IMG/VR virus record: IMGVR_UViG_3300037424_001177
Location: 95,229 to 159,228 of that record
DNA: 64,000 nt
DNA from: a virus
Strand: one strand, 5' to 3'
A program made the translations under genes and the position numbers. Positions 37,462 to 59,475 of this stretch are shown one piece after another (the stretch's first letter is position 1; the number at the start of each line of letters is the position of its first letter). The notes under the pieces were generated by a model. The model saw only the letters and a program-made list of their open reading frames with translations, was not told the DNA's origin and ran no database searches.

Positions 37462-39123
37462 GTGACCTCTTCTGCTCGCGTTGCGGCCCGGTACAAGTCC
37501 AAAAAGGAGCTGGATACCGGAACGGTCGTCTATCAGTACTCGGAGCGACAGATCGCGCGTCGAAACAACGAAAAGGCAGCGCGACTCGAGAAATTGCGCG
37601 GTAAAATCAAAGGCTTACGAAGCCAGGTACGGAAGGATCTGAAGTCGAGTGATCCTGATACGGCTCTGACTTCACTGGCCGTGGCTTTGATAGACCACAC
37701 TTTTGAGCGTGTCGGGAATGCGACAAGTGCCGACGACGGGCATGTGGGCGTCACCGGGTGGCAGAAGAGTCACATCAGCTTTGGCCGCAACAAGGCGACG
37801 ATCAAGTACGTCGGGAAGTCGGGCGTCAAACAGAAGAAGATCGTGAGCGACAAAGCTATTCTGGCCGCTCTCCGAGACGCTTACGAGGGCTGTGACGAGG
37901 ATTCGATTTTCTGTCACGGCTCCGGCAAGATCACTGCCAGTCACGTCAACGCGTACCTCAAGAAGTTCGAGATCACAGCGAAAGATTTACGCGGATTTCA
38001 TGCAAACCGCCGGATGCAAGATGAACTCCGCACAGTTCGTTCAAAAAGTGGCGAACTGTCGGAAGACAAGAAGAAGCGGGATGCACAGCTCAAGAAGGAG
38101 TTCGAACACGCACTTGATGAGACAGCTAAAGCTGTCGGTCACGAAGCGGCGACTCTGAAGTCTATGTACTTGGTTCCGGGGCTCGAGGAGACGTTCCTCA
38201 AAGACGGGTCTGTCTATTCCAAGATGAAGTTGGCAGAACTCGTGATGCGGTTCGCAGGTTTGACCGATTCGGACAAGCGTGTTGTTGACGCGTTCATCAA
38301 GAAAGAGACCGCAGATGGCCGGATGCTTTCGACAGACGGACATTCATTGTACAAGTCTGGAATGGGCAGTGAAAAGGTCGCTGTTTGGCGCGGCAACAAG
38401 ATCGCTATCGTGTCGACTGAGTCCGCCAAAAGTGACGAGGTGATTCTGCGCTACCTAGTCAAGGTTGGCGGGAAGAGCCTCATCACGTGGGCCTATGATC
38501 GACCGGGCTTCGAGAAGTCATTGCATTTCGAAACCGGTAGCGACTCCGTCGCTCGGGGCCAGCACGATGGGTGGATTTCCGTTTGGATTCCTGGCCGCGA
38601 TGAGCGTGTTGGTTGGCTCAGCTGGTCACTCTACCAAGGTCGCTACCAAATCAAAATGGTTCATGTGGAACCTGAGTTTCGCCGATCCGGAATTGCGACG
38701 GCTCTTTACAGAAAACTCTTCCGCGACGAGCACATCACCAAAAACGATTTGGACCCTACATGGCAGACAGATGAGGGACAAGCTTTACGCCGCTCACCGT
38801 TGAGTGCTACACAACGAGTGGTGGCTCGCTACCTCAACGCCAAAAAGACGCCGTCGCAGATGTCGGCGGGAGAAATCAACCGCGAACTCGACCGACTAGA
38901 TCGAGCACATTCGAAGCTCATATCCCAATTCATTGAGGCCGGACGTGGCCACGAAAGATCTTCGGAGACGATGACCAAGAGTGACCCTCTTGCACGTGCC
39001 TACCAAGAAAGCACTGACCGTTTTCGAGCTTTGAGGAACGAGATCGAAAGACGTATGGGTCCTGGTGCTACGTCACGGTTGCCCAGAGGCTTTGGACCGA
39101 TTCGCGGATTGTCAGGAGCTTGA
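37462..39123 (+). CDS. Polyvalent protein: type IB topoisomerase + unknown domain + GNAT-like domain + small helical domain
   Basis: ERVGN, YVGKSG, TAKDLR, GH, SMY (TopIB pentad); VHVEPEFRRSGIATALY (GNAT motif A); GTG start inferred. Confidence 0.8.
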   Translation: MTSSARVAARYKSKKELDTGTVVYQYSERQIARRNNEKAARLEKLRGKIKGLRSQVRKDLKSSDPDTALTSLAVALIDHTFERVGNATSADDGHVGVTGWQKSHISFGRNKATIKYVGKSGVKQKKIVSDKAILAALRDAYEGCDEDSIFCHGSGKITASHVNAYLKKFEITAKDLRGFHANRRMQDELRTVRSKSGELSEDKKKRDAQLKKEFEHALDETAKAVGHEAATLKSMYLVPGLEETFLKDGSVYSKMKLAELVMRFAGLTDSDKRVVDAFIKKETADGRMLSTDGHSLYKSGMGSEKVAVWRGNKIAIVSTESAKSDEVILRYLVKVGGKSLITWAYDRPGFEKSLHFETGSDSVARGQHDGWISVWIPGRDERVGWLSWSLYQGRYQIKMVHVEPEFRRSGIATALYRKLFRDEHITKNDLDPTWQTDEGQALRRSPLSATQRVVARYLNAKKTPSQMSAGEINRELDRLDRAHSKLISQFIEAGRGHERSSETMTKSDPLARAYQESTDRFRALRNEIERRMGPGATSRLPRGFGPIRGLSGA

Positions 39124-39124
39124 A

Positions 39125-40342
39125 ATGGGCGTGACAACGTCTGCGCGCAAAGTCCTTGCCCGGTACAAACTTGCGCTTGCTGGCGTCATCACGAAACGCG
39201 AAATCGATCAGTGGCGAAAAGACCTACGCCAGATGACCAAGATTTACAAATCGGTCAATCCGGACGATTTGGAGACGTGGCAAGAAGCTAGGAAGTTGTT
39301 CCAAGCTTTTCGGGATAACTACAGCAAGTGGGTCTACAAGACTGTACTCCCTAAAGTCTCGAAGGATGAAGAAACGTATTTACATAGGACGGTAGCCAAG
39401 GAAGCGTGGGATGCATACCTCGCTATCGACACCAGCCAGCTTTTTCCTACAACGTGGGATGCGGAGGGACGTACACAAATTGCCGCCCCTTGGCAGTTGA
39501 AGAGTGTCCAAGATCGCAACATTCAAAAATACCAACGAGCCTTCAGCCGTGCCTTCAAAGCTTTGGAGGAATACGTTGATTCTCGTCAAGGGGAGATTAC
39601 ACGTCACCAAGATGAAGAGTATCAAATTTCTGGAATGCATGTCTCGGTTTCAGGGTACGGGCGCACCGAGTCTGACGCAGAAGATGATCTTGAGAGGTAT
39701 TTGAGGTCACTCAAAGACTATGCGGTTCGAATTTCGAAAGCCGGATTTCGTGACGCTGTTGCAGGCTTGCACGTCGTCGTCTCCTTTGAATCCAAAGAAT
39801 CGTTGACCAACGCAATCTATCAACCGGGTTCGGATACGATGACGGTTTACCCTTTGGGTCTCGCTGGGAGCCAGCACGGAACTTTTGTCCACGAAGTTGG
39901 TCACCGATATTGGTTCAGACGGATGACTCAACAGGCACGCGCCCATTGGATCGACGTGATGGATCGTCGAGGCGCCAAGCTTGAAAAGACTGATGTCGAC
40001 GCCTTCTATGCCTTCATCCAGAAAACCGAGAAAAATGGCTTCTACCCCGACGACCGCGAACTGGAAGCAATGATCGGACGTCTCCCAATTTCTGAAATCG
40101 ACAAGGCCAAGTACCGCGACCTTTCGGGCGTTTCACTCTATGTCCTGAAGGAGCGTCCTAGCGACTATCGTCGGGCGCTGGACGGACAGGTCGGAGACGT
40201 TGTACCTCTCGAGGACGTTTCTGAGTACGCCACCTCTGGGGGCCCTATCGAGGCTTTCGCCGAGGTGTTTCGTGTCTATGTCAACGCTGGCCCAGAGACT
40301 TTAGGTCCTTTCACGCGTGAGCTTTTCCAAACAGTCGTGTAG
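39125..40342 (+). CDS. Zincin-like metallopeptidase domain protein with N-terminal tag
   Basis: HEVGH and distal SEYA....EAFAE. Confidence 0.7.
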   Translation: MGVTTSARKVLARYKLALAGVITKREIDQWRKDLRQMTKIYKSVNPDDLETWQEARKLFQAFRDNYSKWVYKTVLPKVSKDEETYLHRTVAKEAWDAYLAIDTSQLFPTTWDAEGRTQIAAPWQLKSVQDRNIQKYQRAFSRAFKALEEYVDSRQGEITRHQDEEYQISGMHVSVSGYGRTESDAEDDLERYLRSLKDYAVRISKAGFRDAVAGLHVVVSFESKESLTNAIYQPGSDTMTVYPLGLAGSQHGTFVHEVGHRYWFRRMTQQARAHWIDVMDRRGAKLEKTDVDAFYAFIQKTEKNGFYPDDRELEAMIGRLPISEIDKAKYRDLSGVSLYVLKERPSDYRRALDGQVGDVVPLEDVSEYATSGGPIEAFAEVFRVYVNAGPETLGPFTRELFQTVV

Positions 40343-40391
40343 ACACAACTAACACTAATCCTGTTTTTGAATCCTACGAGAGAGCCTGACC

Positions 40392-41633: not shown

Positions 41634-41642
41634 GGGCGACGG

Positions 41643-44962: not shown

Positions 44963-45034
44963 GGAGGTGTAGCTAAATGGTAATGCAACGTGCTTTTAAC
45001 ACGTAGATTGCAGGTTCGAGCCCTGTCACCTCCA
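44963..45034 (+). tRNA. trnK: tRNA-Lys(TTT)
   Basis: Cloverleaf, loop CTTTTAA. Confidence 0.9.
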
Positions 45035-45040
45035 CTTGAT

Positions 45041-45113
45041 GGGTTGCTAACTCAACAGGTAGAGTAGCAGGTTCTTAACCTGAAAGTTCCGAGTTCGATT
45101 CTCGGGCAGCCCA
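45041..45113 (+). tRNA. trnK: tRNA-Lys(CTT)
   Basis: Cloverleaf, loop TTCTTAA. Confidence 0.9.
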
Positions 45114-45122
45114 CAGTTCGTA

Positions 45123-45196
45123 TTCCAGGATCGGCTAATTGGTAGGCCACGTCGCTCTGAACGACGGAACGCTGGTTCGATTCCAGCTCCTGGAAC
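45123..45196 (+). tRNA. trnQ: tRNA-Gln(CTG)
   Basis: Cloverleaf, loop CTCTGAA. Confidence 0.88.
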
Positions 45197-45312
45197 TGAG
45201 ACTTCAGGTCTCTTCAAAAGTCCTTTCGAGGACCTTGCTTTTTGACAATTCGTGTTTTTTCACTCGTGTGGCAGATCGGTGCCCACCCAGGTACCGATCT
45301 GCCCACAAACTT

Positions 45313-45388
45313 GTCCCATTAGTCTAGTGGCTCAGGACGCTGCCTTCTCAAGGCGGTAGCGACGGTTCGAATCCGTCATGGGACGCCA
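45313..45388 (+). tRNA. trnE: tRNA-Glu(CTC)
   Basis: Cloverleaf, loop TTCTCAA, CCA end. Confidence 0.92.
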
Positions 45389-45389
45389 T

Positions 45390-45473
45390 TGTAGGGTCGC
45401 GTAACGGTAGCGCACTCGGCTGTTAACCGAGCGAGGAAAACCTCATTTGCAGGTTCGAGTCCTGCCCCTACAG
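45390..45473 (+). tRNA. trnN: tRNA-Asn(GTT) with long variable arm
   Basis: Loop CTGTTAA; extra GAGG-AAAA-CCTC arm. Confidence 0.85.
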
Positions 45474-45917
45474 CTAGACCTTGCCCTTCTTCCAAACGAG
45501 TTTTTGTGCCGCCTCCCGAATGATGCGGAGCGTTGTGTCAGCTTGCTCTATCCGACCGTCGGACCGGAGTTCTTGCTCGGCCCGTTTCAAGTAGTTGACT
45601 TGGGCTTGAGCCAGCTTGGCCCGAACGTTAGCTCCTGAGTCATCCGTTCTGATTTGTGTTTCCTGCAAAATGCTCTTGGGCAGGACAGTGACGACCGTGT
45701 CGTACTTTTTGAGAACGGTTTCAAGCTGCGGCATTTCGTAGGCTACGAGATCCAAATTCTCCCCGAACCCTCGTGTAGTCGGGATGATCGATCCGTCGGC
45801 CGTTTCCTCGATTCTCCACTTAGTTTTGTTCCAGAGGAGCGAGAACCTACTTCCGTTGACTGCGTTGTCCCAACGAGCTGTTTTATAGCGCTGAACGACG
45901 CGGGCCGGGCTGTCCAT
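45474..45917 (-). CDS. Hypothetical protein with RVxxRY N-terminal tag
   Basis: MDSPARVVQRYKTA; AAGGAAG RBS. Confidence 0.6.
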   Translation of the reverse strand: MDSPARVVQRYKTARWDNAVNGSRFSLLWNKTKWRIEETADGSIIPTTRGFGENLDLVAYEMPQLETVLKKYDTVVTVLPKSILQETQIRTDDSGANVRAKLAQAQVNYLKRAEQELRSDGRIEQADTTLRIIREAAQKLVWKKGKV

Positions 45918-45944
45918 ACTTCCTTGGTTTTGACAAGTATTTTC

Positions 45945-46020
45945 GCGGGTGTCACCTCAATGGCGAGGTCGTTGCCTTCCAAGCAAATGTCGGCCGGTTC
46001 GATTCCGGTCACCCGCTCCA
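45945..46020 (+). tRNA. trnG: tRNA-Gly(TCC)
   Basis: Loop CTTCCAA, TCCA end. Confidence 0.9.
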
Positions 46021-46096
46021 AAATGTAAAATATTGACTTGATCGTGTTTTGGATCGTAGGTTTCCATTTTGGGGAAAACCAAATGAGATACCACAC

Positions 46097-47353
46097 ATGA
46101 AAACCATCCAAATCACACTCGCCGTCGCCCTACTTTTTGCGTGCTCAGGCGCACCTAACCAACGAGTCCCACAAGATGTCGAGGTGGTCACACAGGCACT
46201 CAGCGACTACGCTATCACTGCCACGGTGATCGACAATCCTGCGGCCGGGCTCACACGGACCAAGCACACCGTCCAGCAGGGGACAGATCCTCTGAACGTG
46301 TTTGGCGTGACCCGCGTCAAGTCTTCGTACTCACACAAGCCGGTCATTCTTCACGGACCATTTGGATACGACTACCGATGGTACGAGCTCACAGAGACGA
46401 CCAACTACCGGAAGTCCTTTCTAGGCTCCCTCGCGACGTTAGGGTTCGATGTTTGGGTGATCGACGACAGGTTGTCGAAGCAAGCCCCAGGGACTTGCGA
46501 AGTCACTGGTTGCCTAGCGATGGGCGACTGGACTGTGCAGACTAGGGTCGACGACGCAGAGTTCGTGAGAGGCCTTGTTCTTGGTGCCTACGGCTTGAAC
46601 CAGAAGGTCGTGATCGGGGGCTACGTCGGTGGCGCCATGTTCGCACAAGCGACCGTCAACGCGTTCCCTGACCACTACGCGGGCTTGTTCCTTTGGGAGG
46701 GCTCGATGGTGGCGGATTCCGCCCAACAGGCGTTCTCGGCACCCAACTGTGGGCTCCTACAGTTCGTCACCTCTCTCGGGATCTACTCTGATCCGACTCC
46801 CCAAATCTTCGCGTTACTGTTCCAACTGAAGCAAGCTGACCCAACAGGGATCTCGCCAGTGCCTGGGATCCCTGGACTTGAGTTCCTAGCTGCCAAACTC
46901 GCTGAGCTGGGGATCGTGAACGCGACGAATGATCAGGTCTTCTACGTGGTCAGCACGCAACATTTGAACAATCCCAACTGGCCGACGCCAAGCTTTCACT
47001 TCCTCGCCGGTGACTCAACCGGTGTCGACTTCGCTTCAGAGCCTCGCTACCTCAAGATTGGTGGCATCGTGGACGCCTATGCCAGCCTGACCACAATCCG
47101 GGACATCACGTGCGGCCTGGCAGGCGATACGACGTACACGGACAACCTAGCGGCCTTCGAGGGCAAAGTCTTGGCGCTTGGTGCGCATGGCGGGTTCGGT
47201 GCTGAGCTTGAGTTCACGGAAGCCGCTTACGAAAACGCGGACTACGACGTGTTCGTGAACGAGGACTTCGGCGAGAGCGATCGCTTCTTCAATCCACATC
47301 GCTTCTTGCTCGCAGACGTTCCCTTTGCTATTTGGGCATCGACAGTTTTTTAA
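46097..47353 (+). CDS. Alpha/beta-hydrolase-fold lipoprotein
   Basis: Lipobox LLFA-C; ILHG, GFDVW.ID.R; elbow reads GYVGG. Confidence 0.65.
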   Translation: MKTIQITLAVALLFACSGAPNQRVPQDVEVVTQALSDYAITATVIDNPAAGLTRTKHTVQQGTDPLNVFGVTRVKSSYSHKPVILHGPFGYDYRWYELTETTNYRKSFLGSLATLGFDVWVIDDRLSKQAPGTCEVTGCLAMGDWTVQTRVDDAEFVRGLVLGAYGLNQKVVIGGYVGGAMFAQATVNAFPDHYAGLFLWEGSMVADSAQQAFSAPNCGLLQFVTSLGIYSDPTPQIFALLFQLKQADPTGISPVPGIPGLEFLAAKLAELGIVNATNDQVFYVVSTQHLNNPNWPTPSFHFLAGDSTGVDFASEPRYLKIGGIVDAYASLTTIRDITCGLAGDTTYTDNLAAFEGKVLALGAHGGFGAELEFTEAAYENADYDVFVNEDFGESDRFFNPHRFLLADVPFAIWASTVF

Positions 47354-47406: not shown

Positions 47407-47865
47407 CTAGTCGACGATCCCCATCAGGAAAGCTTCCTCTTCCGACTCCTCGACAACAATCACAGGCTGAGTGTTTGGGATCCCATAGTCCAGGGTCCCA
47501 GCTCTCAGCTCCGTGAGGAGCTGAATTCTCCCCATGTGGTTGCCGAGAAGATCTCGGATTCGCCGCGCCTCAGGCGTTCCGCGTTCGAGGGCATTCTCTT
47601 TGGCTACTTTAGTCAACATCACCCAAGTCGTGGCAGGACCGTCCCCGTCGGCTGTCGTGAATCCCACGTCTCGGTCCTTGACTGAATTGATGGGAAGAAA
47701 GCACTCTTTGGGTCCGAGCCTGTGCTGACGCACAGCTTCCAGAAGCTCGAAAATGTTGTCGTATTTCAATTTTATCCGCCACCCAATGAAGGCGATGGAA
47801 AACAACTTAGCAGAAGGAATCTTGTGTCACAAGTGTTCTCACTCGAAAATGTTGTCGTAGATCAT
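47407..47865 (-). CDS. Hypothetical protein interrupted after codon 8 by cassette C (may restart at an in-frame TTG in the cassette)
   Basis: Removing cassette plus one duplication gives MIYDNIFELLEAV..., with ATG 1 nt after the upstream gene's TAG. Confidence 0.6.
47764..47841 (-). mobile_element. Promoter + single CRISPR-like repeat cassette (C), 18-bp flanking duplication
   Basis: CTCGAAAATGTTGTCGTA at 47746-47763 and 47842-47859; TTGTGA-17 nt-TAAGTT; TTCCATCGCCTTCATTGGGTGGCGGATAAAATTGAAA. Confidence 0.78.
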
Positions 47866-47866
47866 C

Positions 47867-48175
47867 CTAGCGTGGGCCCGGTAGCTTAGGCGCCTTCCGA
47901 GAGTAGTCGCGAGTGTCTTGGGCCGACCAAGTCTGGTTAACGATGCCCGCAGCGTGGTAGAGAGCTGAGGATACCCTCATTTCTTGACCCATCTTTTCCG
48001 CAGCGGTTCCAAGACTCCAAACCGCTGAAAACAAGAGACGCTTCGGGTTGCCGCTACCTTTAGCGATCCTCTTGAGAGCTTCGATCGCCGCTTGAATGTC
48101 TTCGACAGCTTCGGCCGACGGCTTCGCGGCCTCTTTCAAGGAGCGGAACCGGGCTACGACTCGTTTGGCTTCCAT
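47867..48175 (-). CDS. Small protein with RVxxRF tag
   Basis: MEAKRVVARFRSLKEAA; GAGGT RBS. Confidence 0.65.
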   Translation of the reverse strand: MEAKRVVARFRSLKEAAKPSAEAVEDIQAAIEALKRIAKGSGNPKRLLFSAVWSLGTAAEKMGQEMRVSSALYHAAGIVNQTWSAQDTRDYSRKAPKLPGPR

Positions 48176-48477
48176 GTCTTTAGTACCTCAAAATGTCCCA
48201 TCAGATCTTCTTCGCGTACCAGTAGGCCTTCACAAAGTCCCCGAGGTCGGAGCCACTCCACAGCAGATTGCCACTCGGTGCGCGGGGTGTAGAACCTGGG
48301 TCCCTTCGCGCTGACCACAACCGTCGTGTTTTTCTCGCCCTTCAAAATCTCGTCGTTCGAATTCAAGCCGTAACCGTACACAGCTAATTGTTTTTCAGCC
48401 AAGGCCATTTTTTGGGGAGCCAGCTTGGTAGCGGCAACCAATGCCTGAAATCGGGCTACGACTCGTTTGGCTTCCAT
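48154..48477 (-). CDS. Small protein with RVxxRF tag
   Basis: MEAKRVVARFQALVAA; first 26 nt identical to next gene. Confidence 0.6.
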   Translation of the reverse strand: MEAKRVVARFQALVAATKLAPQKMALAEKQLAVYGYGLNSNDEILKGEKNTTVVVSAKGPRFYTPRTEWQSAVEWLRPRGLCEGLLVREEDLMGHFEVLKTWKPNES

Positions 48478-48479
48478 AC

Positions 48480-49079
48480 CTAGCACTTCCGATAAACACT
48501 ATGGACGAGGCCCTCAAGCATCGACGCCTTGAAGTCTGCGTTCCGGACAAGTATGGAGGTCTTTTCTGGGTGAGCGGCATCGAATCGCACGTAGTCGCCT
48601 TCCTTGCGGTAGTACCTGACGCTGATCTCATCACCAACGCGTAAGCAAACCAAGCACCCAGAAGTAATGAAGGCACCGCGTCGTTGAACGAGCAAATAGT
48701 CTCCATCTAGAATCCCTGATCTTTCGAGTGCGTCTCCGCGCATCAGGAACCCGACGACAGGCTTGTTGATCATTGAGGAACTGACTTGGATAGTATCGAC
48801 AACGTTCCCTTCTTCGAAAGTTCGCGAATAAACTTTGACCGTTTGAGTTTCCGACACTGTGGTGCTTTCAATGAGCTTGATCCCGCGACTCGCGCCTTGA
48901 CGTGTACGCTGGATGTGGCCTTTGCGTTCGAGTGCGTCCAGGTGTTGACTGATGCCGTGCGTGGAGTGTAAATCTAAAGCGACACAAAGTTCTCGCAGGG
49001 AAGGCGGGTAACCGAATTCCCTGATACGATCCCGAACGACGTTCAGGACCATTTCTTGTCGCCTGGTGAGTCCGATCAT
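48480..49079 (-). CDS. lexA: LexA-family repressor lacking autocleavage residues
   Basis: LT.RQ, GYPPS.REL, HL.ALERKG.I, SRGI; S24-like domain GDAL/GI.DGD. Confidence 0.85.
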   Translation of the reverse strand: MIGLTRRQEMVLNVVRDRIREFGYPPSLRELCVALDLHSTHGISQHLDALERKGHIQRTRQGASRGIKLIESTTVSETQTVKVYSRTFEEGNVVDTIQVSSSMINKPVVGFLMRGDALERSGILDGDYLLVQRRGAFITSGCLVCLRVGDEISVRYYRKEGDYVRFDAAHPEKTSILVRNADFKASMLEGLVHSVYRKC

Positions 49080-49113
49080 GCGATATCGTCAGGTGTAACA
49101 CCGTGTTTCAAAT

Positions 49114-49184
49114 GCTGCGTGACGCGATTGGATCGCGACCTCTCTGTCTAAGAGGCGAAACGGGTTCGATTCCCGTACGCAGCG
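49114..49184 (+). tRNA. trnD: tRNA-Asp(GTC)
   Basis: Loop CTGTCTA, GTTCGA. Confidence 0.82.
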
Positions 49185-49186
49185 CC

Positions 49187-49279
49187 GGCCTAGGATCCCG
49201 GGGTGGCGACCGGGTGTGATATTGCTGACGTGCGCACGGTAGGCAGTAGAGCAGGGCGTAGAAGCTACGCAGGGCCACA
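49187..49279 (+). ncRNA. Putative structured, tRNA-sized RNA
   Basis: Closing GGCC/GGCC stem plus three hairpins; no canonical tRNA motifs. Confidence 0.35.
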
Positions 49280-49384
49280 ATATTTTACGTGATTCCCAGG
49301 TTTTGGGAGCAAAAACAGGAGGTATCTATGATGTTGATGATTTTCTGAATACCGGCCCTTGGGGGAGGGCCCCGGTCGGTGTAA

Positions 49385-49792
49385 GTGGCGTACATGCTCA
49401 CAACAGCTGACCAGTTGGTACTGCACGGACTAGGAGACTACGTTCTCCAAAGCCAGTGGATGGCGAACGAGAAGTCAAAACAATCACTCGTAGCCTTCGT
49501 GCACGCGCTCACCTACACGTTGCCGTTCTTTTTGGTGAGCCAGAATCCGTCGGCACTTTTTGCGATCTGCGGCACACACTTCGTGATCGATCGATGGCGC
49601 CTCGCCAAGTACGTGTGTTGGACCAAAAACTTCTTGGCACCACCGGGCTCCAATCGCCCTTGGTCTGAGTGTCGCAGTACGGGCTACCCAGACGACAGCC
49701 CTCCTTGGTTGAGTGTGTGGTTGTTCATCATTGCAGACAACCTCATGCACGTGGTGTGTAACGGACTGGCTCTCAAGTATCTCAACTTTTAG
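49385..49792 (+). CDS. DUF3307-family membrane protein
   Basis: H.LGDYVLQS.WMA..K, HAL.Y, THFVID, DN.MH. Confidence 0.8.
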   Translation: MAYMLTTADQLVLHGLGDYVLQSQWMANEKSKQSLVAFVHALTYTLPFFLVSQNPSALFAICGTHFVIDRWRLAKYVCWTKNFLAPPGSNRPWSECRSTGYPDDSPPWLSVWLFIIADNLMHVVCNGLALKYLNF

Positions 49793-49861
49793 AGGTGAGG
49801 CTAAGGTAGCCGGGGAGCCTCCAAAACTCCTGCCGAGACGGTTCAATTCCGTCCACCTCTG
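49791..49861 (+). tRNA. trnW: tRNA-Trp(CCA)
   Basis: Loop CTCCAAA, GTTCAA. Confidence 0.8.
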
Positions 49862-49862
49862 C

Positions 49863-50093
49863 TTAGGGACACAACTCCAATCTTTTGGCACAAGACAGGT
49901 CTTCGTTGTGCGGACCTTCACACACGTCTTGTAAACGGTACTTGAATTGTTCTGCTCGTACAACACAGCGCACGTCGACCTTGTCTTCTTGGGCTCGGTA
50001 GGTGTGGATGCAATAGGCCACAATGCCGGCATCGGCAAGGAGGACGAGGCCCCACAACATGAGCGTCAGGGTCTTTGGGCTGACAATGGGCAT
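49863..50093 (-). CDS. Small membrane-anchored Cys protein
   Basis: N-terminal TM, Cys-rich tail. Confidence 0.4.
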   Translation of the reverse strand: MPIVSPKTLTLMLWGLVLLADAGIVAYCIHTYRAQEDKVDVRCVVRAEQFKYRLQDVCEGPHNEDLSCAKRLELCP

Positions 50094-50115
50094 GACAAAT
50101 TGTAGCACAAGTTTC

Positions 50116-50188
50116 GGTGCTCGACGGTCGGGTTGACCTGATTCGTCTGATAAGCGGATCGTGCAGAGTTCAAGTCTCTGGAGCACTA
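50116..50188 (+). tRNA. trnI: tRNA-Ile(GAT)
   Basis: Loop CTGATAA, GTTCAA; atypical D arm. Confidence 0.75.
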
Positions 50189-50227
50189 CTACTGGAGGTC
50201 ATCGCCTTGCCGCCACGCACTGTCTAC

Positions 50228-50614
50228 TTACAGTTTCACGAGTCCGTCGAGCATCTGCCGAGTCGAAATCTCGTTTCGCCAGTATTGAAGCAAGATCACC
50301 CTGTTCAAGTTGACGAAGTCGATGACCTGCTTTTTCAGCTTGCCGGGAAGAGTGCCGATAACCCTCGGAGGTTTTGTGATCGTGACCGAAGCCGCGTCCG
50401 ACAACCCCTCTTTGGTGATTTTCGTGCCCGGAATGATCTTGACCCTAGGACCGTGCTGACTCTTGGTTCCGACAAACTCACCGGAGGATACCCAAATAAC
50501 CGCATCCGCCACGCCGGTGTCAACCGGAGGAAGGTTGGACATCGCTTCGAGCAGGAATCGAGCGACGATCTTCTTAGGGTTGGGCTTACTTTGTACTGGT
50601 TTCTTGGCGGCCAT
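50228..50614 (-). CDS. DUF4160-like protein with KIxxRF tag
   Basis: KKIVARFLLEA then MSNL...TG...IWVS...HGPRVK...F+.LN...+L.YW. Confidence 0.6.
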   Translation of the reverse strand: MAAKKPVQSKPNPKKIVARFLLEAMSNLPPVDTGVADAVIWVSSGEFVGTKSQHGPRVKIIPGTKITKEGLSDAASVTITKPPRVIGTLPGKLKKQVIDFVNLNRVILLQYWRNEISTRQMLDGLVKL

Positions 50615-50677
50615 CGCGTCCTTGTAGGATCACACACTTTGAGCTGGTGAGCTAGCTCATTTTCATCTTCTCTCAGT

Positions 50678-51418
50678 TCACGTGGACGACGTGTCGGGAT
50701 GGTAGAAATCTCCAAGAGCCTGCAAGTAGATGTCGTGGTGCTCTGTGTCGAGTAACGCCTTGTCGTAGAATGTGATGCTCGCAACGTCGGCTTTCAAGAA
50801 GTTACCCATACCCCAAGGCCAACCACAGGATGCGCCGACACGAAAGTGTCCGTATTCGCCACCTGTTGGCGTCGCAGTGATGTGGTCGATCCAGTTGTCA
50901 CATGTAACGAGCTTGCCATTCACGTAGAAGTTGTTGATCTCTACTCCCGGTTTGTTCGGCCACATGCTGCGTGTCCAACCGAGTACGCAAGGCAGCGACG
51001 GCAAGATGGTTTTAGCCTTGGTAATTGAGTTGGTCCCCATCCCGTATTCAACGAACATCCCCAATTCGTTTTGGCCGACTTCAAAATGGTATTGTGTATT
51101 GGTCGCCTCGACTTCGCCGAGACCTGCGTGTGACACCAGGCACTGTTTGCGAGACCGATTGTGGTTTTTGATCAGACAAGCGAACGCACAGTTTGTTGCC
51201 CGATTCAAATCCGGGATCATGTTCGGGATCCAGAGACATGTGTCCCCGCCAAACCTAAACCAAGTGATCCCGCCGTCGTCGACGTATTGTTCTTTTCCGG
51301 TCTCGACTACGAGGTCTCTTGGTAGGTCTTTACGTCGACCACTAGTATCGACAAGTGATCCGTTCAGGACGTTGAGCACAGGCTCGTGACTGTTGTCGAT
51401 GTAGCGAATTCGACCCAC
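50678..51418 (-). CDS. Divergent LamG-like paralog
   Basis: L.DTSG, LVVETG.E.Y, LVSHAG.GE.EATN..Y, FYVNG, TPTGG..G.FRVG shared with the genes at 1-2779. Confidence 0.65.
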   Translation of the reverse strand: MGRIRYIDNSHEPVLNVLNGSLVDTSGRRKDLPRDLVVETGKEQYVDDGGITWFRFGGDTCLWIPNMIPDLNRATNCAFACLIKNHNRSRKQCLVSHAGLGEVEATNTQYHFEVGQNELGMFVEYGMGTNSITKAKTILPSLPCVLGWTRSMWPNKPGVEINNFYVNGKLVTCDNWIDHITATPTGGEYGHFRVGASCGWPWGMGNFLKADVASITFYDKALLDTEHHDIYLQALGDFYHPDTSST

Positions 51419-51450
51419 CGCCGCATTTTAACACAACTAATGACAGCGTG

Positions 51451-51891
51451 TCAAACCGTTGTGTCCATGCTCTTTTCGAATTCGGAAACGAACGTTTTCA
51501 ACTCCGAAACGGTTTTTCGTAGACCGCGCTCGTCTTTTTTCTTGATCACACCTTCAATCTTGGAAGCGATATTTTCCAAGTCACGTTTCAACAGCGGTGC
51601 ATCGGCTTGAAGTGCTTCCCAGTCAGGTTCAGTGAACGCAGAGGTTCGATCATAACTGTACATTTTGCGGACCCTTTCTACCGGCCTCAAATCCCTGATT
51701 AGTAGCCAGCGGTGGGTGCCCGAGACGTGAAGTCCTCTTGACTTAGCCTCTACAGTTATCTGATTTATCTGCTCTTTTGTGTACCCGTCAACGTCTATTG
51801 TTACTTCGCTCTTTCCTGGCTTCACGCTGTCTAAAATCCGGTCCAAGAGTGTGACCTGTCTTCCTCCGCCCGCGGCGTTGATTTGCGTCAT
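51451..51891 (-). CDS. Fused pair of small proteins; second starts at 51663 with MYSYDR tag
   Basis: Near-identical leaders TAGAAAGG(A/G)TC(T/C)GCAAAATG precede both ATGs, in frame. Confidence 0.55.
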   Translation of the reverse strand: MTQINAAGGGRQVTLLDRILDSVKPGKSEVTIDVDGYTKEQINQITVEAKSRGLHVSGTHRWLLIRDLRPVERVRKMYSYDRTSAFTEPDWEALQADAPLLKRDLENIASKIEGVIKKKDERGLRKTVSELKTFVSEFEKSMDTTV

Positions 51892-51936
51892 TTTGCAGAT
51901 CCTTTCTACTGAGGGTCTAGCCAATAACAAATTTTT

Positions 51937-52011
51937 CGGGGATAAGGCTCAAGGTGGGCCACTAGTCTTGGGAACTAGCGTCGGCGGGTTCGATTCCCGC
52001 ATCCCCGACCA
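51937..52011 (+). tRNA. trnP: tRNA-Pro(TGG)
   Basis: Loop CTTGGGA, ACCA end. Confidence 0.9.
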
Positions 52012-52019
52012 ACACCTTT

Positions 52020-52095
52020 GCCGGCGTAGCACTCTAGGGAGCGCACTTGCCTCGTAAGCAAGACCAGATCGGTTCGAATCCGTTCGCCGGCTCCA
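52020..52095 (+). tRNA. trnT: tRNA-Thr(CGT)
   Basis: Loop CTCGTAA, TCCA end. Confidence 0.9.
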
Positions 52096-52097
52096 CT

Positions 52098-52176
52098 GCT
52101 CCGTTCGTCTACGTTGGTTTAGGACAACTGCCCTTTCAAGGCGGAGAAGCGGGATCGTCGCCCGCACGGAGCACCA
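52098..52176 (+). tRNA. trnE: tRNA-Glu(TTC)
   Basis: Loop CTTTCAA, ACCA end; T-loop ATCGTCG. Confidence 0.85.
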
Positions 52177-52187
52177 AACATTTTCTT

Positions 52188-52263
52188 GGGGCCGTAGCTC
52201 AAATGGGAGAGCACTTGTCTTGCACACAAGGGGTTGAGAGTTCGAGTCTCTCCGGTTCCACCA
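52188..52263 (+). tRNA. trnA: tRNA-Ala(TGC)
   Basis: Loop CTTGCAC, G3:U70, ACCA. Confidence 0.92.
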
Positions 52264-52265
52264 AT

Positions 52266-52338
52266 GCCCCTGTAGCGCAATGGATAGCGCAGCACGCTTC
52301 GAACGTGTAGGTTGGGAGTTCGAGTCTCTCCAGGGGCG
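52266..52338 (+). tRNA. trnR: tRNA-Arg(TCG)
   Basis: Loop CTTCGAA. Confidence 0.9.
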
Positions 52339-52343
52339 CTTTA

Positions 52344-52430
52344 GTCGCTGTGGCGGAATTTGGCAGACGCACTTGCCTTAGAAGCAAGCGCCCTTGTGGT
52401 GTGGAGGTTCAAGTCCTCTCAGCGACACCA
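52344..52430 (+). tRNA. trnL: tRNA-Leu(TAG)
   Basis: Loop CTTAGAA, variable arm, ACCA. Confidence 0.92.
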
Positions 52431-52434
52431 ACTT

Positions 52435-52510
52435 TGCGGGGTAGGCTGACTGGTGAGGCACCGGTCCTACAAACCGGCTTAGGTTGGGGTTCGATTCCCA
52501 CACCCCGTAC
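52435..52510 (+). tRNA. trnV: tRNA-Val(TAC), atypical
   Basis: Loop CCTACAA (C33), C discriminator. Confidence 0.65.
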
Positions 52511-52583
52511 GAGCCTGATCCATCCGGTCGGTGGGCGCGATCTGCAAAATCGTGTGCACTGGGTTCAACTCCCAGCAGGCTCT
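52511..52583 (+). tRNA. trnC: tRNA-Cys(GCA)
   Basis: Loop CTGCAAA, U discriminator. Confidence 0.8.
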
Positions 52584-52832
52584 CTAGTTCTTTGGCGGCC
52601 TCAGGTCCTCGACTTTGGTCAAGGGTCCAATAAACTTCTTCATCGTTTCTTGGAGATCGTCTTCCGACTCTTTTGCAAACAGTAGGACGGAAGGCCCTCC
52701 TTCGATACCCAATTGTGTTCGTGTGTCGATTTTGATGGGTTGGTCCTCGAGCAGCTTCTCACAATTCATGCGAGACAGTCCGAGGATAATCAATGTCTGC
52801 CCATCGTCAGTACCCGCAACAGCTTTGATCAT
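52584..52832 (-). CDS. Hypothetical protein
   Basis: 82-aa ATG ORF between tRNAs. Confidence 0.5.
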   Translation of the reverse strand: MIKAVAGTDDGQTLIILGLSRMNCEKLLEDQPIKIDTRTQLGIEGGPSVLLFAKESEDDLQETMKKFIGPLTKVEDLRPPKN

Positions 52833-52854
52833 GTCGACTATCGTACGTCTTTCC

Positions 52855-52970
52855 GCCCTCGTAGCACAACTGGATTGTGCACCCGGCTACCCTTCCTTCA
52901 ATTCCCGCCCGGTTTCTACTGTTACTTGTCCGGACAATCAACAAAAATCTGTACTCCGAGGGGGACACCA
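52855..52970 (+). pseudogene. Disrupted tRNA-Arg(ACG)
   Basis: Good 5' half GCCCTCGTAGCACAACTGGATTGTGCACCCGGCTAC stops in the anticodon; CGAGGG..ACCA about 65 nt later. Confidence 0.55.
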
Positions 52971-52991
52971 AATCTTGGTGTCATTGTCGGC

Positions 52992-53312
52992 ATGGCCGAA
53001 ACTGCCCTCACGCTACCGGATCGTGAAGAGATGCTTGCACGTCTACTGAAGATCAACGATCTATCGCATTTTCGGCAGTATCTTTATCCACGGTTGTTGA
53101 CAAGTGCCGGTAAACAAATAACGGCTCCAAGCGGTGTCGCCATGATGTTGGTACTTGCTATGTACGACTACGTGAAAGAGTGTGGATTACCGTCTATCGC
53201 GACCCGTGCGTTGTACTTGCAGGCTCCTGTGTTTGTCGATGCGCTAGTCAGTGACGTTGAGCTAATCAACGCAACAAAAGAGTTTCTCAGGGAAGCTCTT
53301 AGACGAAACTAG
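52992..53312 (+). CDS. Hypothetical protein
   Basis: ATG at 52992 inferred. Confidence 0.45.
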   Translation: MAETALTLPDREEMLARLLKINDLSHFRQYLYPRLLTSAGKQITAPSGVAMMLVLAMYDYVKECGLPSIATRALYLQAPVFVDALVSDVELINATKEFLREALRRN

Positions 53313-53790
53313 GACCCGGTCCTTACGTCGGGTTTTCCGAGTCAGGTCAGAGCATCACAACTGGTTCTCCGGAGAGAAGGCGCGGAGCGCTCCGGGGAGT
53401 CTCGTTGGAAGTTGCGGTGTTCCTGGTACGACGCGGGTTGACAGTTACCGTGCCTGAGCAAGCTGTCGTCGGCGAACAAACCCGCTGCCTCGTGGTGGTT
53501 CTTGAGCTTTGGGTTTGTTGTAGGAAGGGCGGCCTGGTCCCTTGCCAAAACCAGGCACGTATAGCAAAGTGGAAAGTCGAAATGGTGAAGCATCGCAGGA
53601 TCACTAACAAGCCGCTGACGGCGGCAAGGAGATCCTGTGCACCACAAACGCAAGAAACGAAAAAACGCTCGAGGCGGTTGTCTGTTTTGTAAGCCTCACA
53701 AGGCAACCGGGTCGAAAGACTCGTGGAATCATCAGACGAGACAAGAACAACGGTCTCGTGTCTCAATGAGCGAACAGCTCAAGGTCTTTT

Positions 53791-53870
53791 GGAGAGGTGG
53801 CTAATGGTGGCAAACCGTTTTGAAAACGGTCGCGGTAATTCCGTAGCGGGTTCGATTCCTGTCCTCTCCG
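53791..53870 (+). tRNA. trnS: tRNA-Ser(TGA)
   Basis: Loop TTTGAAA, variable arm, G discriminator. Confidence 0.85.
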
Positions 53871-53880
53871 CAAAATTAAT

Positions 53881-53966
53881 GGAGGTTGATGATCACTGGG
53901 TGATCCGCAGTTCGCTAAACTGATGGCACTTTCGGGTGTGGCGTTCGATTCGTCCGACCTCCGCCA
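53881..53966 (+). tRNA. trnS: tRNA-Ser(GCT)
   Basis: Loop TCGCTAA (C33), variable arm, GCCA. Confidence 0.8.
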
Positions 53967-53972
53967 ATTTTT

Positions 53973-54046
53973 TGGGGTGTCGTCTAAAGGTAGGACGGCT
54001 GGCTTTGGACCAGTTGATCCAGGTTCGATCCCTGGTGCCCCAACCA
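53973..54046 (+). tRNA. trnQ: tRNA-Gln(TTG)
   Basis: Loop CTTTGGA, ACCA. Confidence 0.9.
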
Positions 54047-54048
54047 AT

Positions 54049-54119
54049 GGCGAGCTTGGTCCAGGGAGGACCAGTGCTTTCATACGGCGCCGGAGAGGGT
54101 TCGAGTCCCTCGCTCGCTA
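54049..54119 (+). tRNA. trnM: tRNA-Met(CAT) (Met or Ile2)
   Basis: Loop TTCATAC, GTTCGA. Confidence 0.8.
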
Positions 54120-54125
54120 CAATGT

Positions 54126-54440
54126 TCAGTTGTCGTCGATGTTCACGAATGCTGTGATCTTGAGGCTCTTCAACCCATCATTCTGGGCCCGTAGGATGAC
54201 CGTTCCGGAGCCGACACCGTTGCTCTTTTCGGTGTCTTTGCCGGCCAACTTGTAGAAGAAGTCCACGTGAACAGTGTCGCGGTGTGTAGTGGCCGGTCTG
54301 AACACCAAAGACCCCTTCTCGAGTTCGTAGTGCTTGGCACACATCTTCTCAACTTGTTCGGTCGTGAGATCCAGGCTGAACTTGTTGAAGATTTGAACTT
54401 TGTCCACAGCCGCAGTCTTGCGTCGGTCGTAGGAATACAT
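54126..54440 (-). CDS. Small protein with MYSYDR tag
   Basis: MYSYDRRKTAA; ATG at 54440. Confidence 0.55.
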   Translation of the reverse strand: MYSYDRRKTAAVDKVQIFNKFSLDLTTEQVEKMCAKHYELEKGSLVFRPATTHRDTVHVDFFYKLAGKDTEKSNGVGSGTVILRAQNDGLKSLKITAFVNIDDN

Positions 54441-54475
54441 AAGCCTTGTCTCTTGAAGGGCCACAAATGAATTTT

Positions 54476-54552
54476 GTCCCAGCAGCACGACTGGACCGTG
54501 CGGCGAGCTTCTAACTCGACGGCTGGTGGTTCGAATCCATCCTGGGACGCCA
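54476..54552 (+). tRNA. trnR: tRNA-Arg(TCT)
   Basis: Loop CTTCTAA, GCCA. Confidence 0.88.
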
Positions 54553-54560
54553 AATGATCT

Positions 54561-54636
54561 GGACTGTGAGCTAGTACGGTTATAGCAGGCTGCTGAAAAC
54601 GGCCAGAACCCCGTTCGACTCGGGGACAGTCCACCA
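54561..54636 (+). tRNA. trnF: tRNA-Phe(GAA)
   Basis: Loop CTGAAAA, ACCA. Confidence 0.88.
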
Positions 54637-54642
54637 ATTTAT

Positions 54643-54719
54643 GGTGAGCGTAGCCTTCTGGTGAGGGCACTTGGATGTGGCCCAAGTTTAGGCGGGTTCA
54701 ATTCCCGTCGCTCACCCCA
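54643..54719 (+). tRNA. trnH: tRNA-His(GTG)
   Basis: G-1, loop ATGTGGC, CCCA end. Confidence 0.88.
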
Positions 54720-55072
54720 ATTCCTAATTCTCGAAAGACTCGGGCTAGCAGCTCGTTTTTGTCGAACGGTTTTGTGATCCAACAACTCTCCAGAGACTTG
54801 TCACTGGCGGCGTAGCCCGATATGTAGAGGACTTTCACGTTGGGGATCAATTTCTTGGCTTCCTCTGCTAGTGTCAAGCCACTCATGTCTTGCAGTGACC
54901 AATCGAGCAGCATGAGCTTGATGGACTCGCCCAAGTGGCTTCTGATTAGTTTGAGCGCGGCCTCACCACTCTTTGCCGTCACGATCTTGTAGTCGTCACA
55001 AGACAGACTCTTCACCAGAGCACGAAGCAAGAATTGTTCGTCGTCGACGATTAGCACAACAGTGGTCGTCAC
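54698..55072 (-). CDS. Stand-alone response-regulator receiver domain
   Basis: LIVDDE, LLDW.L..MSG, ISGY, TKPF; GTG start inferred. Confidence 0.85.
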   Translation of the reverse strand: MTTTVVLIVDDEQFLLRALVKSLSCDDYKIVTAKSGEAALKLIRSHLGESIKLMLLDWSLQDMSGLTLAEEAKKLIPNVKVLYISGYAASDKSLESCWITKPFDKNELLARVFRELGIGVSDGN

Positions 55073-55121
55073 AGCTAGGTCGGCACACAAGTCCTTTCTT
55101 TTTATCGAAACGCCACCTGTC

Positions 55122-56351
55122 GTGACAGATATCATCGCTGCCATCGTAATCCGGTACAAGCGTGGGGACGCAATCGCTGACCCAACGCAACTGTCCAACA
55201 CGATAGGTCAGCATCTCAACGACTTCGCCAAGTTGGAGCGGGATGCACAGAAACTCCAGCAACTGGCTTCCAAGATCAAAGCCATCCGTGCACGAGACCC
55301 CGAATCTGAGGAGCAGAAGCCTTTTTGGAATGAAATTTACTCGATGGAGCCTGTTTTCAGGGAGATGCTCAGGGCTTCGGCTTTCCACTACTACGCTCAG
55401 TTTCGCGATATTTGGGACCTTGCGCTTGCTATTCTTCAACAGTTCAATCTGCCTACGCCTCTTCGTCGAAAAATCGAGCAGATGAGTCGATACTGGGCTT
55501 CCAAACAAAAGCCAAAAAACATCCGGTTGCGTGGCAGCCCTCTCGACCAATACGACGCAGCAGCCGCTAACTATTTGAGTCAGCTGTCCGAGATTCGCGG
55601 CCAGCACGCAACGATCCTTGAAGCTTTGTCCAAGGGCAAGCCCATAGACGAGTCTCACAAGATCAAGGCCGGACCGTTCTCTCTAGTCAACACAGGTGGA
55701 TTCAAAGAATCCGTCATGTTGGAAGCAGCGGACACGGTTCAGAAGGCTGCGACCTTGCTCACGAGCAAGGGTTTTGGCAAGGTTTGCTACGGTGATGTTC
55801 TCGTCAGCCGCAAGGTAGGCAAAAGCAATGTGCTCGCTTTCTACTTAGGATCCAAAGACGAGTTCTTCGTTCGTGCGGGAATCCGAATGAGCGTTGACTC
55901 TGTGCAAACCGTACTTCACGAACTCTTTCATCGTTTGCACCGGAAGTTCTTGTCTGGGAAGGATCAAAAGATCAAGGAGCTTTACCGAAAATGTAGTCAA
56001 GCTTCAGAAAGCGTCGAGGATGCTAAGCGCGATCGTTTGCCCATACCGTCAATAGGTGACGAGGTCAAGTACAAGGGGGAGACGCTCGTGGTCAAAACGG
56101 TCGACTACAGGTCTCGTGCCGTACATCTTGTCGTGAAGGGTGAACCCAAATTCATACTCAAGATTCCCATTGAAACCTACGCGGAGAACTACCTAGGTGT
56201 CCAAAAAACTGTTGTTGACACTTCAGGGTTCGTCACCTCGTATGCCCGCACGGGCGGCCCTGATGAGAACTTCGCAGAGATGGGGTCTTTTTACTGTTTG
56301 AACAAACTGTCGGAGGAACAGGTAGCCAACTTTGAGGAGGTCCTGACCTGA
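55122..56351 (+). CDS. Zincin-like metallopeptidase domain protein with N-terminal tag
   Basis: HELFH and TSYARTGGPDENFAE; paralog of 39125..40342. Confidence 0.7.
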   Translation: MTDIIAAIVIRYKRGDAIADPTQLSNTIGQHLNDFAKLERDAQKLQQLASKIKAIRARDPESEEQKPFWNEIYSMEPVFREMLRASAFHYYAQFRDIWDLALAILQQFNLPTPLRRKIEQMSRYWASKQKPKNIRLRGSPLDQYDAAAANYLSQLSEIRGQHATILEALSKGKPIDESHKIKAGPFSLVNTGGFKESVMLEAADTVQKAATLLTSKGFGKVCYGDVLVSRKVGKSNVLAFYLGSKDEFFVRAGIRMSVDSVQTVLHELFHRLHRKFLSGKDQKIKELYRKCSQASESVEDAKRDRLPIPSIGDEVKYKGETLVVKTVDYRSRAVHLVVKGEPKFILKIPIETYAENYLGVQKTVVDTSGFVTSYARTGGPDENFAEMGSFYCLNKLSEEQVANFEEVLT

Positions 56352-56452
56352 TTTTTATTGCTCGTAGGATCGAGTGATAGTAGGGATCGGGTTGACTGGG
56401 AACTGAAGGAAGTAGTAGCGAATGGTCCTCTAAAACCGAAAGGAGGATCGTC

Positions 56453-57040
56453 ATGTCCTACGCACAAACACTAGTACTGAACCAGCACTACCGGCCACAC
56501 GAGATCGTTGATTGGAAAGACGCCGTCACCAAGATGTTCAAGGGGACTGTCACAGTCCTCGCACAGTATGACGAAGTCCTTGCCCACATTGATCGACAGA
56601 CGCTTCGTACTTTTCCGGAGTTGAGACGTGCTCTCAGTCAAGTGATTGGGACCGACGCTGAAAGCCTCGTGATCAAGGTTCCTGCGGTTGCCGTCTTGCG
56701 CCGCAAGGTTCAAGCGATGAAGTCGGGGATCAAATTTTCGAAAATCAACGTCTTTCAACGTGATGGTTGGCGTTGTTCGTACTGCGACAAGAAGCTTCCG
56801 ATGTCGGAGTTGAACTACGACCACGTCGTGCCGCGATCGAAGGGCGGAAAAACTGAGTGGTGCAACATTGTAACTGCGTGTCGCGCGTGCAATGAGAAGA
56901 AGGCCGACCTGTCGTTGGAGGAGTCGGGAATGACACTTCTTGTCGTTCCTCACCGGCCTCGAGTTCTGCCTCTTCACGGGCCTCGTGTCGATATCAGGAG
57001 TGCCCCGCTTGAATGGCACCCGTACATTGAAGCCGCTTGA
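56453..57040 (+). CDS. HNH endonuclease (McrA-like HNH family)
   Basis: AGGAGG RBS; TLVLN, RDG..CSYC, DHVVPRSKGG...W.NIV.AC..CN.KK. Confidence 0.88.
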   Translation: MSYAQTLVLNQHYRPHEIVDWKDAVTKMFKGTVTVLAQYDEVLAHIDRQTLRTFPELRRALSQVIGTDAESLVIKVPAVAVLRRKVQAMKSGIKFSKINVFQRDGWRCSYCDKKLPMSELNYDHVVPRSKGGKTEWCNIVTACRACNEKKADLSLEESGMTLLVVPHRPRVLPLHGPRVDIRSAPLEWHPYIEAA

Positions 57041-57070
57041 GGTTCTCTTGCTCTCCAAGCAACACACAAC

Positions 57071-57508
57071 TCAACGTGTTGCTTGGAGAGCATCCTCAGC
57101 AATGACATTGACGCGTTTCCAAAAGTTCGCCGTGTCTACGGCTTCGAGGCCTTGCTTGAGTCTTCTCAAACCGTAATCGCGTTTGACAGTGTTCTCCGCG
57201 TAGCGTCGGTAGCTTCGATCGCTTTCTTTGATCTCTGTTACGGCTTCAGCAAAAGCTTTGGACCGGTCTTTGAACCCTCGAATAGGATGAAGAATTGCAA
57301 CAACAAGTTCACTGCCTATGAGTCGGTTGACTTCACCTTCCCAGTGAGAAACCCATTTGGTCTGGCCGTTTTTCTTGGCGAGTGTTGCTTTGTAGTGCTC
57401 GACAATCGCGCCCGTTAAGTGCGATTCAATCTTGTTTTTGAAGTCGTCACGCTTGTAGGCCATCGCGGTCAAGTAGCGCTTCGCGATCCTTTGGGACGCC
57501 TTAGACAT
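57071..57508 (-). CDS. Helical (DUF29-like) protein with RIxxRY tag
   Basis: MSKASQRIAKRYLTA then MAY...IESHL...EH.K...HW..E. Confidence 0.55.
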   Translation of the reverse strand: MSKASQRIAKRYLTAMAYKRDDFKNKIESHLTGAIVEHYKATLAKKNGQTKWVSHWEGEVNRLIGSELVVAILHPIRGFKDRSKAFAEAVTEIKESDRSYRRYAENTVKRDYGLRRLKQGLEAVDTANFWKRVNVIAEDALQATR

Positions 57509-59472: not shown

Positions 59473-59475
59473 CCT

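Follow-up and report, generated by a model that had tools for sequence, protein, structure and literature searches.

The DNA analysed here is the last 64 kb of the 159,228-bp phage record IMGVR_UViG_3300037424_001177 of IMG/VR (G000; CheckV completeness 33%), and this whole stretch of 64,000 nucleotides, positions 95,229 to 159,228 of the record, is referred to as the window. Within its second half, eight genes for dissimilar proteins begin with a similar short peptide rich in basic, aliphatic and aromatic residues, hereafter the tag (Table 1). A preliminary description of the window had quoted these eight peptides and had read them as a modular N-terminal zip code, cleaved after an alanine, which loads effector proteins into the phage head for injection. 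All eight are present at the starts of the respective reading frames, and in six of the eight genes, with the exception of the two that start with GTG, a Shine-Dalgarno-like purine run is situated 4-13 nt 5' of the tag-including start codon. With the core strictly defined as R/K-V/I-(V/I/L/A/M)-x-R-Y/F, seven of the eight quoted N-terminal peptides match. The copy of zincin-like protein 2 (A-I-V-I-R-Y) is a weak variant, which is nevertheless kept at the N-terminus of the 80%-identical orthologue in the closest relative, G001 (IMGVR_UViG_3300036760_000522; 301,550 bp; about 93% identity to the record), a complete genome whose 127-bp terminal overlap indicates a closed assembly. A ninth, strict copy is located near the C-terminus of the protein that combines a type IB topoisomerase (TopoIB) with a GNAT domain.

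The strict core is found eight times in the 182 proteins of the 159-kb record, a gene set of crude longest open reading frame (ORF) calls, versus 0.39 expected from 2000 residue shuffles per protein, in which the maximum was three, and every one of these copies lies inside the window. For the first 25 residues the shuffles yield 0.04 strict cores, and the N-terminal frequency of the motif, which the preliminary description had proposed to compare with shuffled controls, is far above this expectation. Of the 39 core motifs in five genomes with tags, 25 are placed within 30 residues of a protein end, as compared with one of nine for a reversed-motif control. Differing codons among the tag copies argue for selection on the peptide. 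From 27 terminal tags of four genomes, a consensus can be derived with small residues at -3/-2 followed by R-(V20/I7)-(A16/V11)-(A/T/S)-R-(Y17/F10)-(L/R/A/K)-x-(A10/L5). LR745208.1 (485 kb; TerL identity 42%) is a more distant relative of the phage; further genomes with the tag are a 380-kb relative with an 81% identical capsid protein (G006) and a complete genome of 393 kb (G009). No tags were found in Tunturi_5, a 309-kb phage of Acidobacteriota with a TerL identity of 27%, which is the only cultured relative, and no paper that describes the motif was found in the literature. We consider it very probable that the motif is a real, portable and terminal docking peptide.

The proposal of a modular peptide on unrelated cargo is supported by the proteins themselves. 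After removal of the first 28 residues, 16 tagged proteins of the phage and its close relative show no BLASTP similarity to each other (E<=0.01) with the exception of one paralogue pair. The tagged set includes the TopoIB with GNAT domain, two zincins with a HExxH motif, an Acb1/LigT-like 2H phosphoesterase and several small proteins; in relatives, a J-domain protein and a protein with sigma-70 region 4 are equally tagged. Among the family labels assigned beforehand, TopoIB is confirmed by Pfam (Topoisom_I, E 1.7e-23; GNAT, E 7.7e-05). Both zincins possess the HExxH motif, although just one weak Pfam match, of zincin-like protein 2 to Peptidase_Mx1, was obtained, and only the C-terminal third-ligand motif is common to the two; zincin-like protein 1 gave no match in Pfam and PDB sequence searches and is absent from the syntenic site of the closest relative. 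Pfam did not bear out the labels DUF4160-like and DUF29-like. Of the small proteins, the one of 147 amino acids (aa) has no homologue in G001, the 102-aa protein has an orthologue there directly after the LexA-like gene, and the cargo fold of the 128-aa protein (p128) has no significant match in PDB.

Two families give a closer view of the junction between tag and cargo. In the p128 family, three paralogues of the closest relative combine differing tag variants and linkers of 2-10 residues with the same conserved core, and an alignment of close p128 orthologues finds the tag retained. The core of the 145-aa protein (p145), on the other hand, begins at an invariant Met, which is preceded by the tag in huge-phage members and by other leaders elsewhere. 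A profile search with p145 recovered 282 cluster representatives; among the 133 scored, four have the strict core, 19 start with Met and many have related basic-aliphatic leaders. The preliminary description had noted two tags that end directly before what looked like the original Met of the cargo; this holds for p145, while the E-A-M junction of p128 falls within the conserved cargo core, beyond the variable linkers. The p145 core is combined with different leaders in different phage groups, for example Leu-Arg-Arg-Arg-Tyr-Gly-His/Tyr before the invariant Met in the representatives P0123, P0135, P0140, P0164 and P0186. In other members of the family, many leaders end T4-like in Leu-Leu-x-Glu before Met; in L159, the one locus recovered, such a leader is shared by no other gene.

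At the DNA level, the 107-aa gene corresponds to a 302-nt indel relative to the closest relative, and both of its flanks align to the same 29-nt stretch of G001 (blastn). The indel is bordered by a tag-coding direct repeat of about 29 nt with exact 26-nt copies, which indicates that the gene has been gained or lost by recombination between these repeats, and tag DNA can thus act as a joint for gene gain or loss. A candidate that was rejected is a mobile promoter-hairpin cassette of this genome of which the tag might have been a part; the cassette matches only itself and one other known copy and is never found upstream of a tagged gene. Sigma-70-like promoter sites number 10 against 9.7 expected with none before a tagged gene, and the upstream regions of the tagged genes show no obvious shared late motif.

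The idea of a signal that is restricted to the N-terminus is contradicted by C-terminal copies, in G001 and in 2H phosphoesterases, and by copies at domain junctions in LR745208.1 and G006. The strict copies of the closest relative are divided into five N-terminal and three C-terminal ones, the latter on a 2H phosphoesterase, a 410-aa protein and the TopoIB-GNAT protein. In G001 as well as in 20 of 26 stand-alone 2H phosphoesterases (Pfam 2_5_RNA_ligase2, LigT, Acb1), the C-terminal copies are separated from the stop codon by 5-16 residues; in these 20 phosphoesterases the tag follows a short linker, and 3-14 residues come after it as a tail; two-domain 2H phosphoesterases have a Trp-containing tag variant at the end. 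Since the G001 orthologue of the TopoIB-GNAT protein (93% identical) ends 25 residues past its second tag, the seemingly internal copy of the window protein is in fact a C-terminal tag, behind which about 60 additional residues are inserted. In AlphaFold models, residues 1-23 of p128 have a predicted local distance difference test (pLDDT) score below 50 and the domain begins around residue 25, while the core of the 2H phosphoesterase is modelled with pLDDT above 90 and its tag as a terminal helix (residues 171-186) with pLDDT 67-69. The tag is thus predicted to be outside the folded cores.

Some observations on related proteins can be added. Within its N-terminal ~100 residues, the tagged 2H phosphoesterase of G001 has a domain of about 90 residues with a conserved Asn-Ala-Pro-Ser-Lys-Pro (further proteins, P0069-P0086), which is common to two-domain 2H phosphoesterases and to zincin-like huge-phage proteins of 420-458 aa. 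The latter have (V/I)-(V/L)-Asp-Arg-Phe-Glu 5-6 residues from their C-terminus, which may be a tag variant. In LR745208.1, two proteins start with tandem tag-like motifs (Leu-Val-Asp-Arg-Tyr, then a second copy), an arrangement that hints at avidity for an oligomeric receptor.

Table 1. Positions of the tagged genes, of the head module and of other features mentioned in the text
Feature	Sequence	Position	Strand	Start codon	Tag core or remark
TopoIB - unknown domain - GNAT	window	37462..39123	+	GTG	N-terminal core 37477-37494; second core 38815-38832, then helical tail
Zincin-like protein 1 (HExxH)	window	39125..40342	+	ATG	N-terminal core 39149-39166
147-aa protein	window	45474..45917	-	ATG	N-terminal core 45885-45902
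102-aa protein	window	47867..48175	-	ATG	N-terminal core 48146-48163
107-aa protein	window	48154..48477	-	ATG	N-terminal core 48448-48465
128-aa protein (p128)	window	50228..50614	-	ATG	core 50555-50572, after variable basic pre-tag
Zincin-like protein 2 (HExxH)	window	55122..56351	+	GTG	weak variant 55140-55157
145-aa protein (p145)	window	57071..57508	-	ATG	N-terminal core 57473-57490, immediately 5' of invariant Met codon
Exact 26-nt tag-coding repeat	window	48452-48477 and 48150-48175			
2H phosphoesterase	G001	37156-38040	-		C-terminal tag
410-aa protein	G001	75767-76999			C-terminal tag
Proteins with tandem tag-like motifs	LR745208.1	462951-464315; 64700-65779			
Polyvalent-type protein, 2602 aa	L085	2885-10693			
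Small TerL-upstream protein	record	51001-51369			shifted tag variant
TerL	record	51929-53953			
Portal	record	56191-58029			
5-hmdU DNA kinase	record	58026-59126			
Post-portal protein, 311 aa	record	59159-60094			
Head protease	record	61208-62629			
Major capsid protein	record	64607-65491			
Second N-terminal motif	window	54126-54440	-		
Second N-terminal motif	window	51451-51663	-		
Second N-terminal motif	record	70090-70398	+		
Second N-terminal motif	G001	129258; 129679; 205451; 56937			
tRNA genes (21)	window	44963-54719			clustered
Ku homologue	window	35559-36446	-		
LexA-like gene	window	48480-49079	-		
Receiver-domain-like gene	window	54698-55201	-		judged by eye

The nature of the cargo gives a first indication of what the tag might be for. 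Polyvalent proteins, which phages package and inject together with the DNA, typically contain zincin metallopeptidase, GNAT and 2H phosphoesterase domains (Iyer et al., 2017; PMC5512222). In mid-sized phage contigs, the 2H domain of the tagged enzymes is part of ORFs of 927-3115 aa. One of these ORFs, on a 53.6-kb viral contig (L085), codes for a polyvalent-type protein that opens with the TopoIB catalytic core and also has a nucleotidyltransferase head domain of the poly(A)-polymerase type besides its 2H phosphoesterase; another carries LPD1 (large polyvalent protein-associated domain 1). The giant proteins with homologues of the tagged 2H enzyme and of TopoIB measure 1950-3115 aa. With zincin peptidase, GNAT, 2H phosphoesterase and TopoIB in both repertoires, the tagged set looks like an unbundled polyvalent protein. 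The tagged proteins have domain families in common with polyvalent proteins without being giant multi-effector polypeptides, as they comprise 88-553 residues with at most three domains. Polyvalent proteins unite their modules in one polypeptide and have no tag core (none in about 12,000 residues of giant polyvalent proteins), whereas the modules are encoded here by separate genes or small fusions, each of which is tagged.

The reading preferred here, with a probability of roughly 45%, is that the reader of the tag is a component of the head and that the tag loads effectors into it. A docking peptide of about 9-14 residues, consisting of small residues and R-V/I-A/V-x-R-Y/F-(L/K/R)-x-(A/L), would on its own be disordered or form a short amphipathic helix. 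In one clade of 300-450-kb phages, evolution has added this peptide to effector-type proteins that are not related to each other, at the N- or the C-terminus and occasionally where two domains meet. Most likely, a single common receptor would read the tag, with a component of the assembling head, be it the prohead core, the shell interior or the portal/packaging complex, as the most likely candidate. The tagged TopoIB-GNAT protein, zincins, Acb1-like 2H phosphoesterase and small basic proteins, in relatives along with the sigma-region-4 and the J-domain protein, would be enclosed in the head and reach the host cell alongside the DNA, so that the tag would achieve with separate genes what polyvalent proteins achieve by covalent concatenation. 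The single reader, the destination in the head and the injection are steps each of which we infer. Slightly more tentative is the wider proposal of a zip code for virion cargo that would have arisen by splitting a polyvalent protein into separate genes, with the tag DNA doubling as a recombination joint for the swapping of cargo.

Of the head-loading zip code as originally put forward, the portable tag and the unrelated cargo have endured and the capsid is the best single guess for its destination, while the N-terminal restriction does not hold and a conserved cleavage after Ala is not supported. Besides the overlap with polyvalent proteins, three tagged proteins of the head and packaging modules of relatives point to the capsid. 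In G006, a canonical tag is present on a small basic protein upstream of TerL, a variant tag on a TopoIB gene directly after TerL, and a canonical tag on the post-portal protein, where it follows a conserved charged N-terminal segment; this protein is the orthologue of the 311-aa post-portal protein of the phage. TopoIB adjoins TerL also in L002 and LR745208.1. These tags and neighbours are circumstantial evidence in favour of a head-related reader. In the phage itself the head module is located upstream of the window, which encodes baseplate genes as well, and the small protein upstream of TerL has only a shifted tag variant.

A precedent for such loading is the capsid-targeting sequence (CTS) of phage T4, which is N-terminal on the internal proteins IPI-III and on Alt, ends in hydrophobic-x-Glu and is cleaved off by the gp21 protease at a fixed position. 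Both the CTS and the tag are peptides of about ten residues on unrelated proteins of one phage, with host-modifying enzymes and small basic proteins among the cargo, and the CTS is sufficient for loading into the prohead before injection, which is the function that the tag would have. However, there is no likeness in sequence, as the tag consensus is basic-aliphatic-aromatic without a conserved Glu; the CTS is strictly N-terminal, immediately behind the initiator Met, whereas the tag is also found at C-termini and domain junctions; and the CTS is cut at a defined site, for which the tag has no conserved counterpart. The Ala after which cleavage had been suggested is present three residues past the aromatic residue in just 10 of the 27 terminal tags. 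Neither in the record nor in G001 was a match to PF03420 (Peptidase_S77, the T4 gp21 family) found above the cut-off, and phrog_18299 is the only match of the head protease, without any Pfam family that would point to its specificity. A second precedent are the cargo-loading peptides of encapsulins, which are equally short and terminal (N- or C-, depending on the family), bind inside an HK97-fold shell and load unrelated enzymes; the capsid protein of the phage is of the HK97 type. On the other hand, these peptides have another consensus, and encapsulins are bacterial compartments, not virions.

Several observations weigh against a reader in the head. Neither the major capsid protein nor the portal nor the protease of this phage is tagged, its post-portal protein lacks the tag of the G006 orthologue, and the tagged genes of the window are situated in a tRNA-rich accessory region outside the head module. 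No conserved protease site is found next to the 27 terminal tags. In p145, the tag sits where most family members have a leader in other forms, so that some of the likeness may be a property of the family itself. Two tagged genes of G006 stand directly beside a phage ClpX gene, and no phage with the tag is known in culture.

The alternative that survives best, though unlikely, is docking of the tag on another shared hub such as host RNA polymerase, the ribosome, the membrane, DnaK or an unrecognised phage scaffold or compartment. The enrichment of the tag, its position at either end and its location outside the fold fit such a hub equally well, the sigma-region-4 and J-domain proteins among the cargo of relatives act in the cytoplasm, and the tagged genes of the window are outside the structural modules. 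No candidate hub has been identified, however, and a hub of this kind leaves the overlap with polyvalent modules and the head-module tags of G006 unexplained.

Less likely still is a role of the tag as a tether to ClpX, namely to the zinc-binding domain at the N-terminus of the host enzyme or, in larger relatives, of the phage's own, or to another unfoldase; the tagged proteins would then undergo timed degradation or remodelling, or be unfolded and translocated. SspB binds ClpX through an L-R-V-V motif in its C-terminal tail, and as with this tail and the N-terminal tether of UmuD, the tag is a short peptide on a flexible segment that can be used at either end of the protein for docking to one hub, with a core partly similar to R-V-V. 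The tags of G006 often read L-R-V-A/V, G003, G004, G005 and G006 each encode a ClpX of full length that also matches the N-terminal part of the model, and the two tagged genes beside the ClpX gene of G006, one of them for the J-domain protein, are directly downstream of it. The ClpX-binding motif, however, has neither the aromatic residue nor the second Arg, and the key Leu of SspB is mostly missing in this phage, where the residue before Arg in the window is A, Q, K or S; Leu is found there in three of the 27 terminal tags, all of G006. Moreover, searches for ClpX (TIGR00382, PF06689) and ClpP (PF00574) were negative in the 159-kb record and in G001, ClpX is equally absent from LR745208.1 and Tunturi_5, and only one of the four ClpX-bearing relatives (G003) has ClpP. 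Phage-encoded ClpX/ClpP as the obligate reader was rejected for the lineage, as both are absent from the complete genomes G001 and G009, which bear 9-13 and 3-5 tags, respectively. Host ClpX is a possible reader, but it is implausible that about ten unrelated enzymes act as adaptors, and as substrates they would need a degron, of which none was seen.

The least probable explanation, that there is no common reader and that the likeness of independent terminal amphipathic helices, intrinsic to their families or serving solubility and partly spread by recombination at short DNA identities, has been over-read, can draw on the basic-aliphatic leaders of most of the 133 p145 representatives, on the TopoIB N-terminal segment, which is partially conserved even in a polyvalent protein that lacks the strict core, and on the repeat around the 107-aa gene as a case of tag copying at the DNA level, but it is at odds with the low chance expectation per proteome, with a reversed motif that is not enriched at protein ends, with the recurrence of the same six-residue core, differently encoded, at either end of unrelated folds, and with the absence of this core from Tunturi_5 and from polyvalent proteins.

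Further features of the phage accompany the tagged genes. Another N-terminal motif, Met-(x)-Tyr-Ser/Asp/Thr-Tyr-Asp-Arg-Arg/Thr, recurs at the start of three or more small proteins of the phage and of five of G001, where two copies stand in place of zincin-like protein 1 at the syntenic position; this motif may be an address tag as well. The tRNA genes of the window are interleaved with tagged genes, and the window also encodes a homologue of Ku, a LexA-like protein and a receiver-domain-like protein. Directly 3' of the portal gene, upstream of the window, the record has a gene for a 5-hydroxymethyldeoxyuridine (5-hmdU) DNA kinase (PF18723, E 2.3e-97), so that the phage probably hypermodifies thymidine.

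If loading into the head is indeed what the tag does, the proteins that uncultured huge phages inject would be predictable from sequence, and an injected counter-defence set of TopoIB-GNAT, zincins, an Acb1-like phosphoesterase and a sigma-like factor could be read from the genome. These proteins would constitute the first wave against bacterial defences, in which the Acb1-like enzyme would destroy cyclic-nucleotide alarm signals on arrival. Many tagged genes in place of one polyvalent protein would represent a second evolutionary route to co-delivery, and a small, position-independent peptide would be at hand for loading foreign proteins into large capsids. Even with ClpX or another hub as the reader, the tag would still define a new network of phage short linear motifs.

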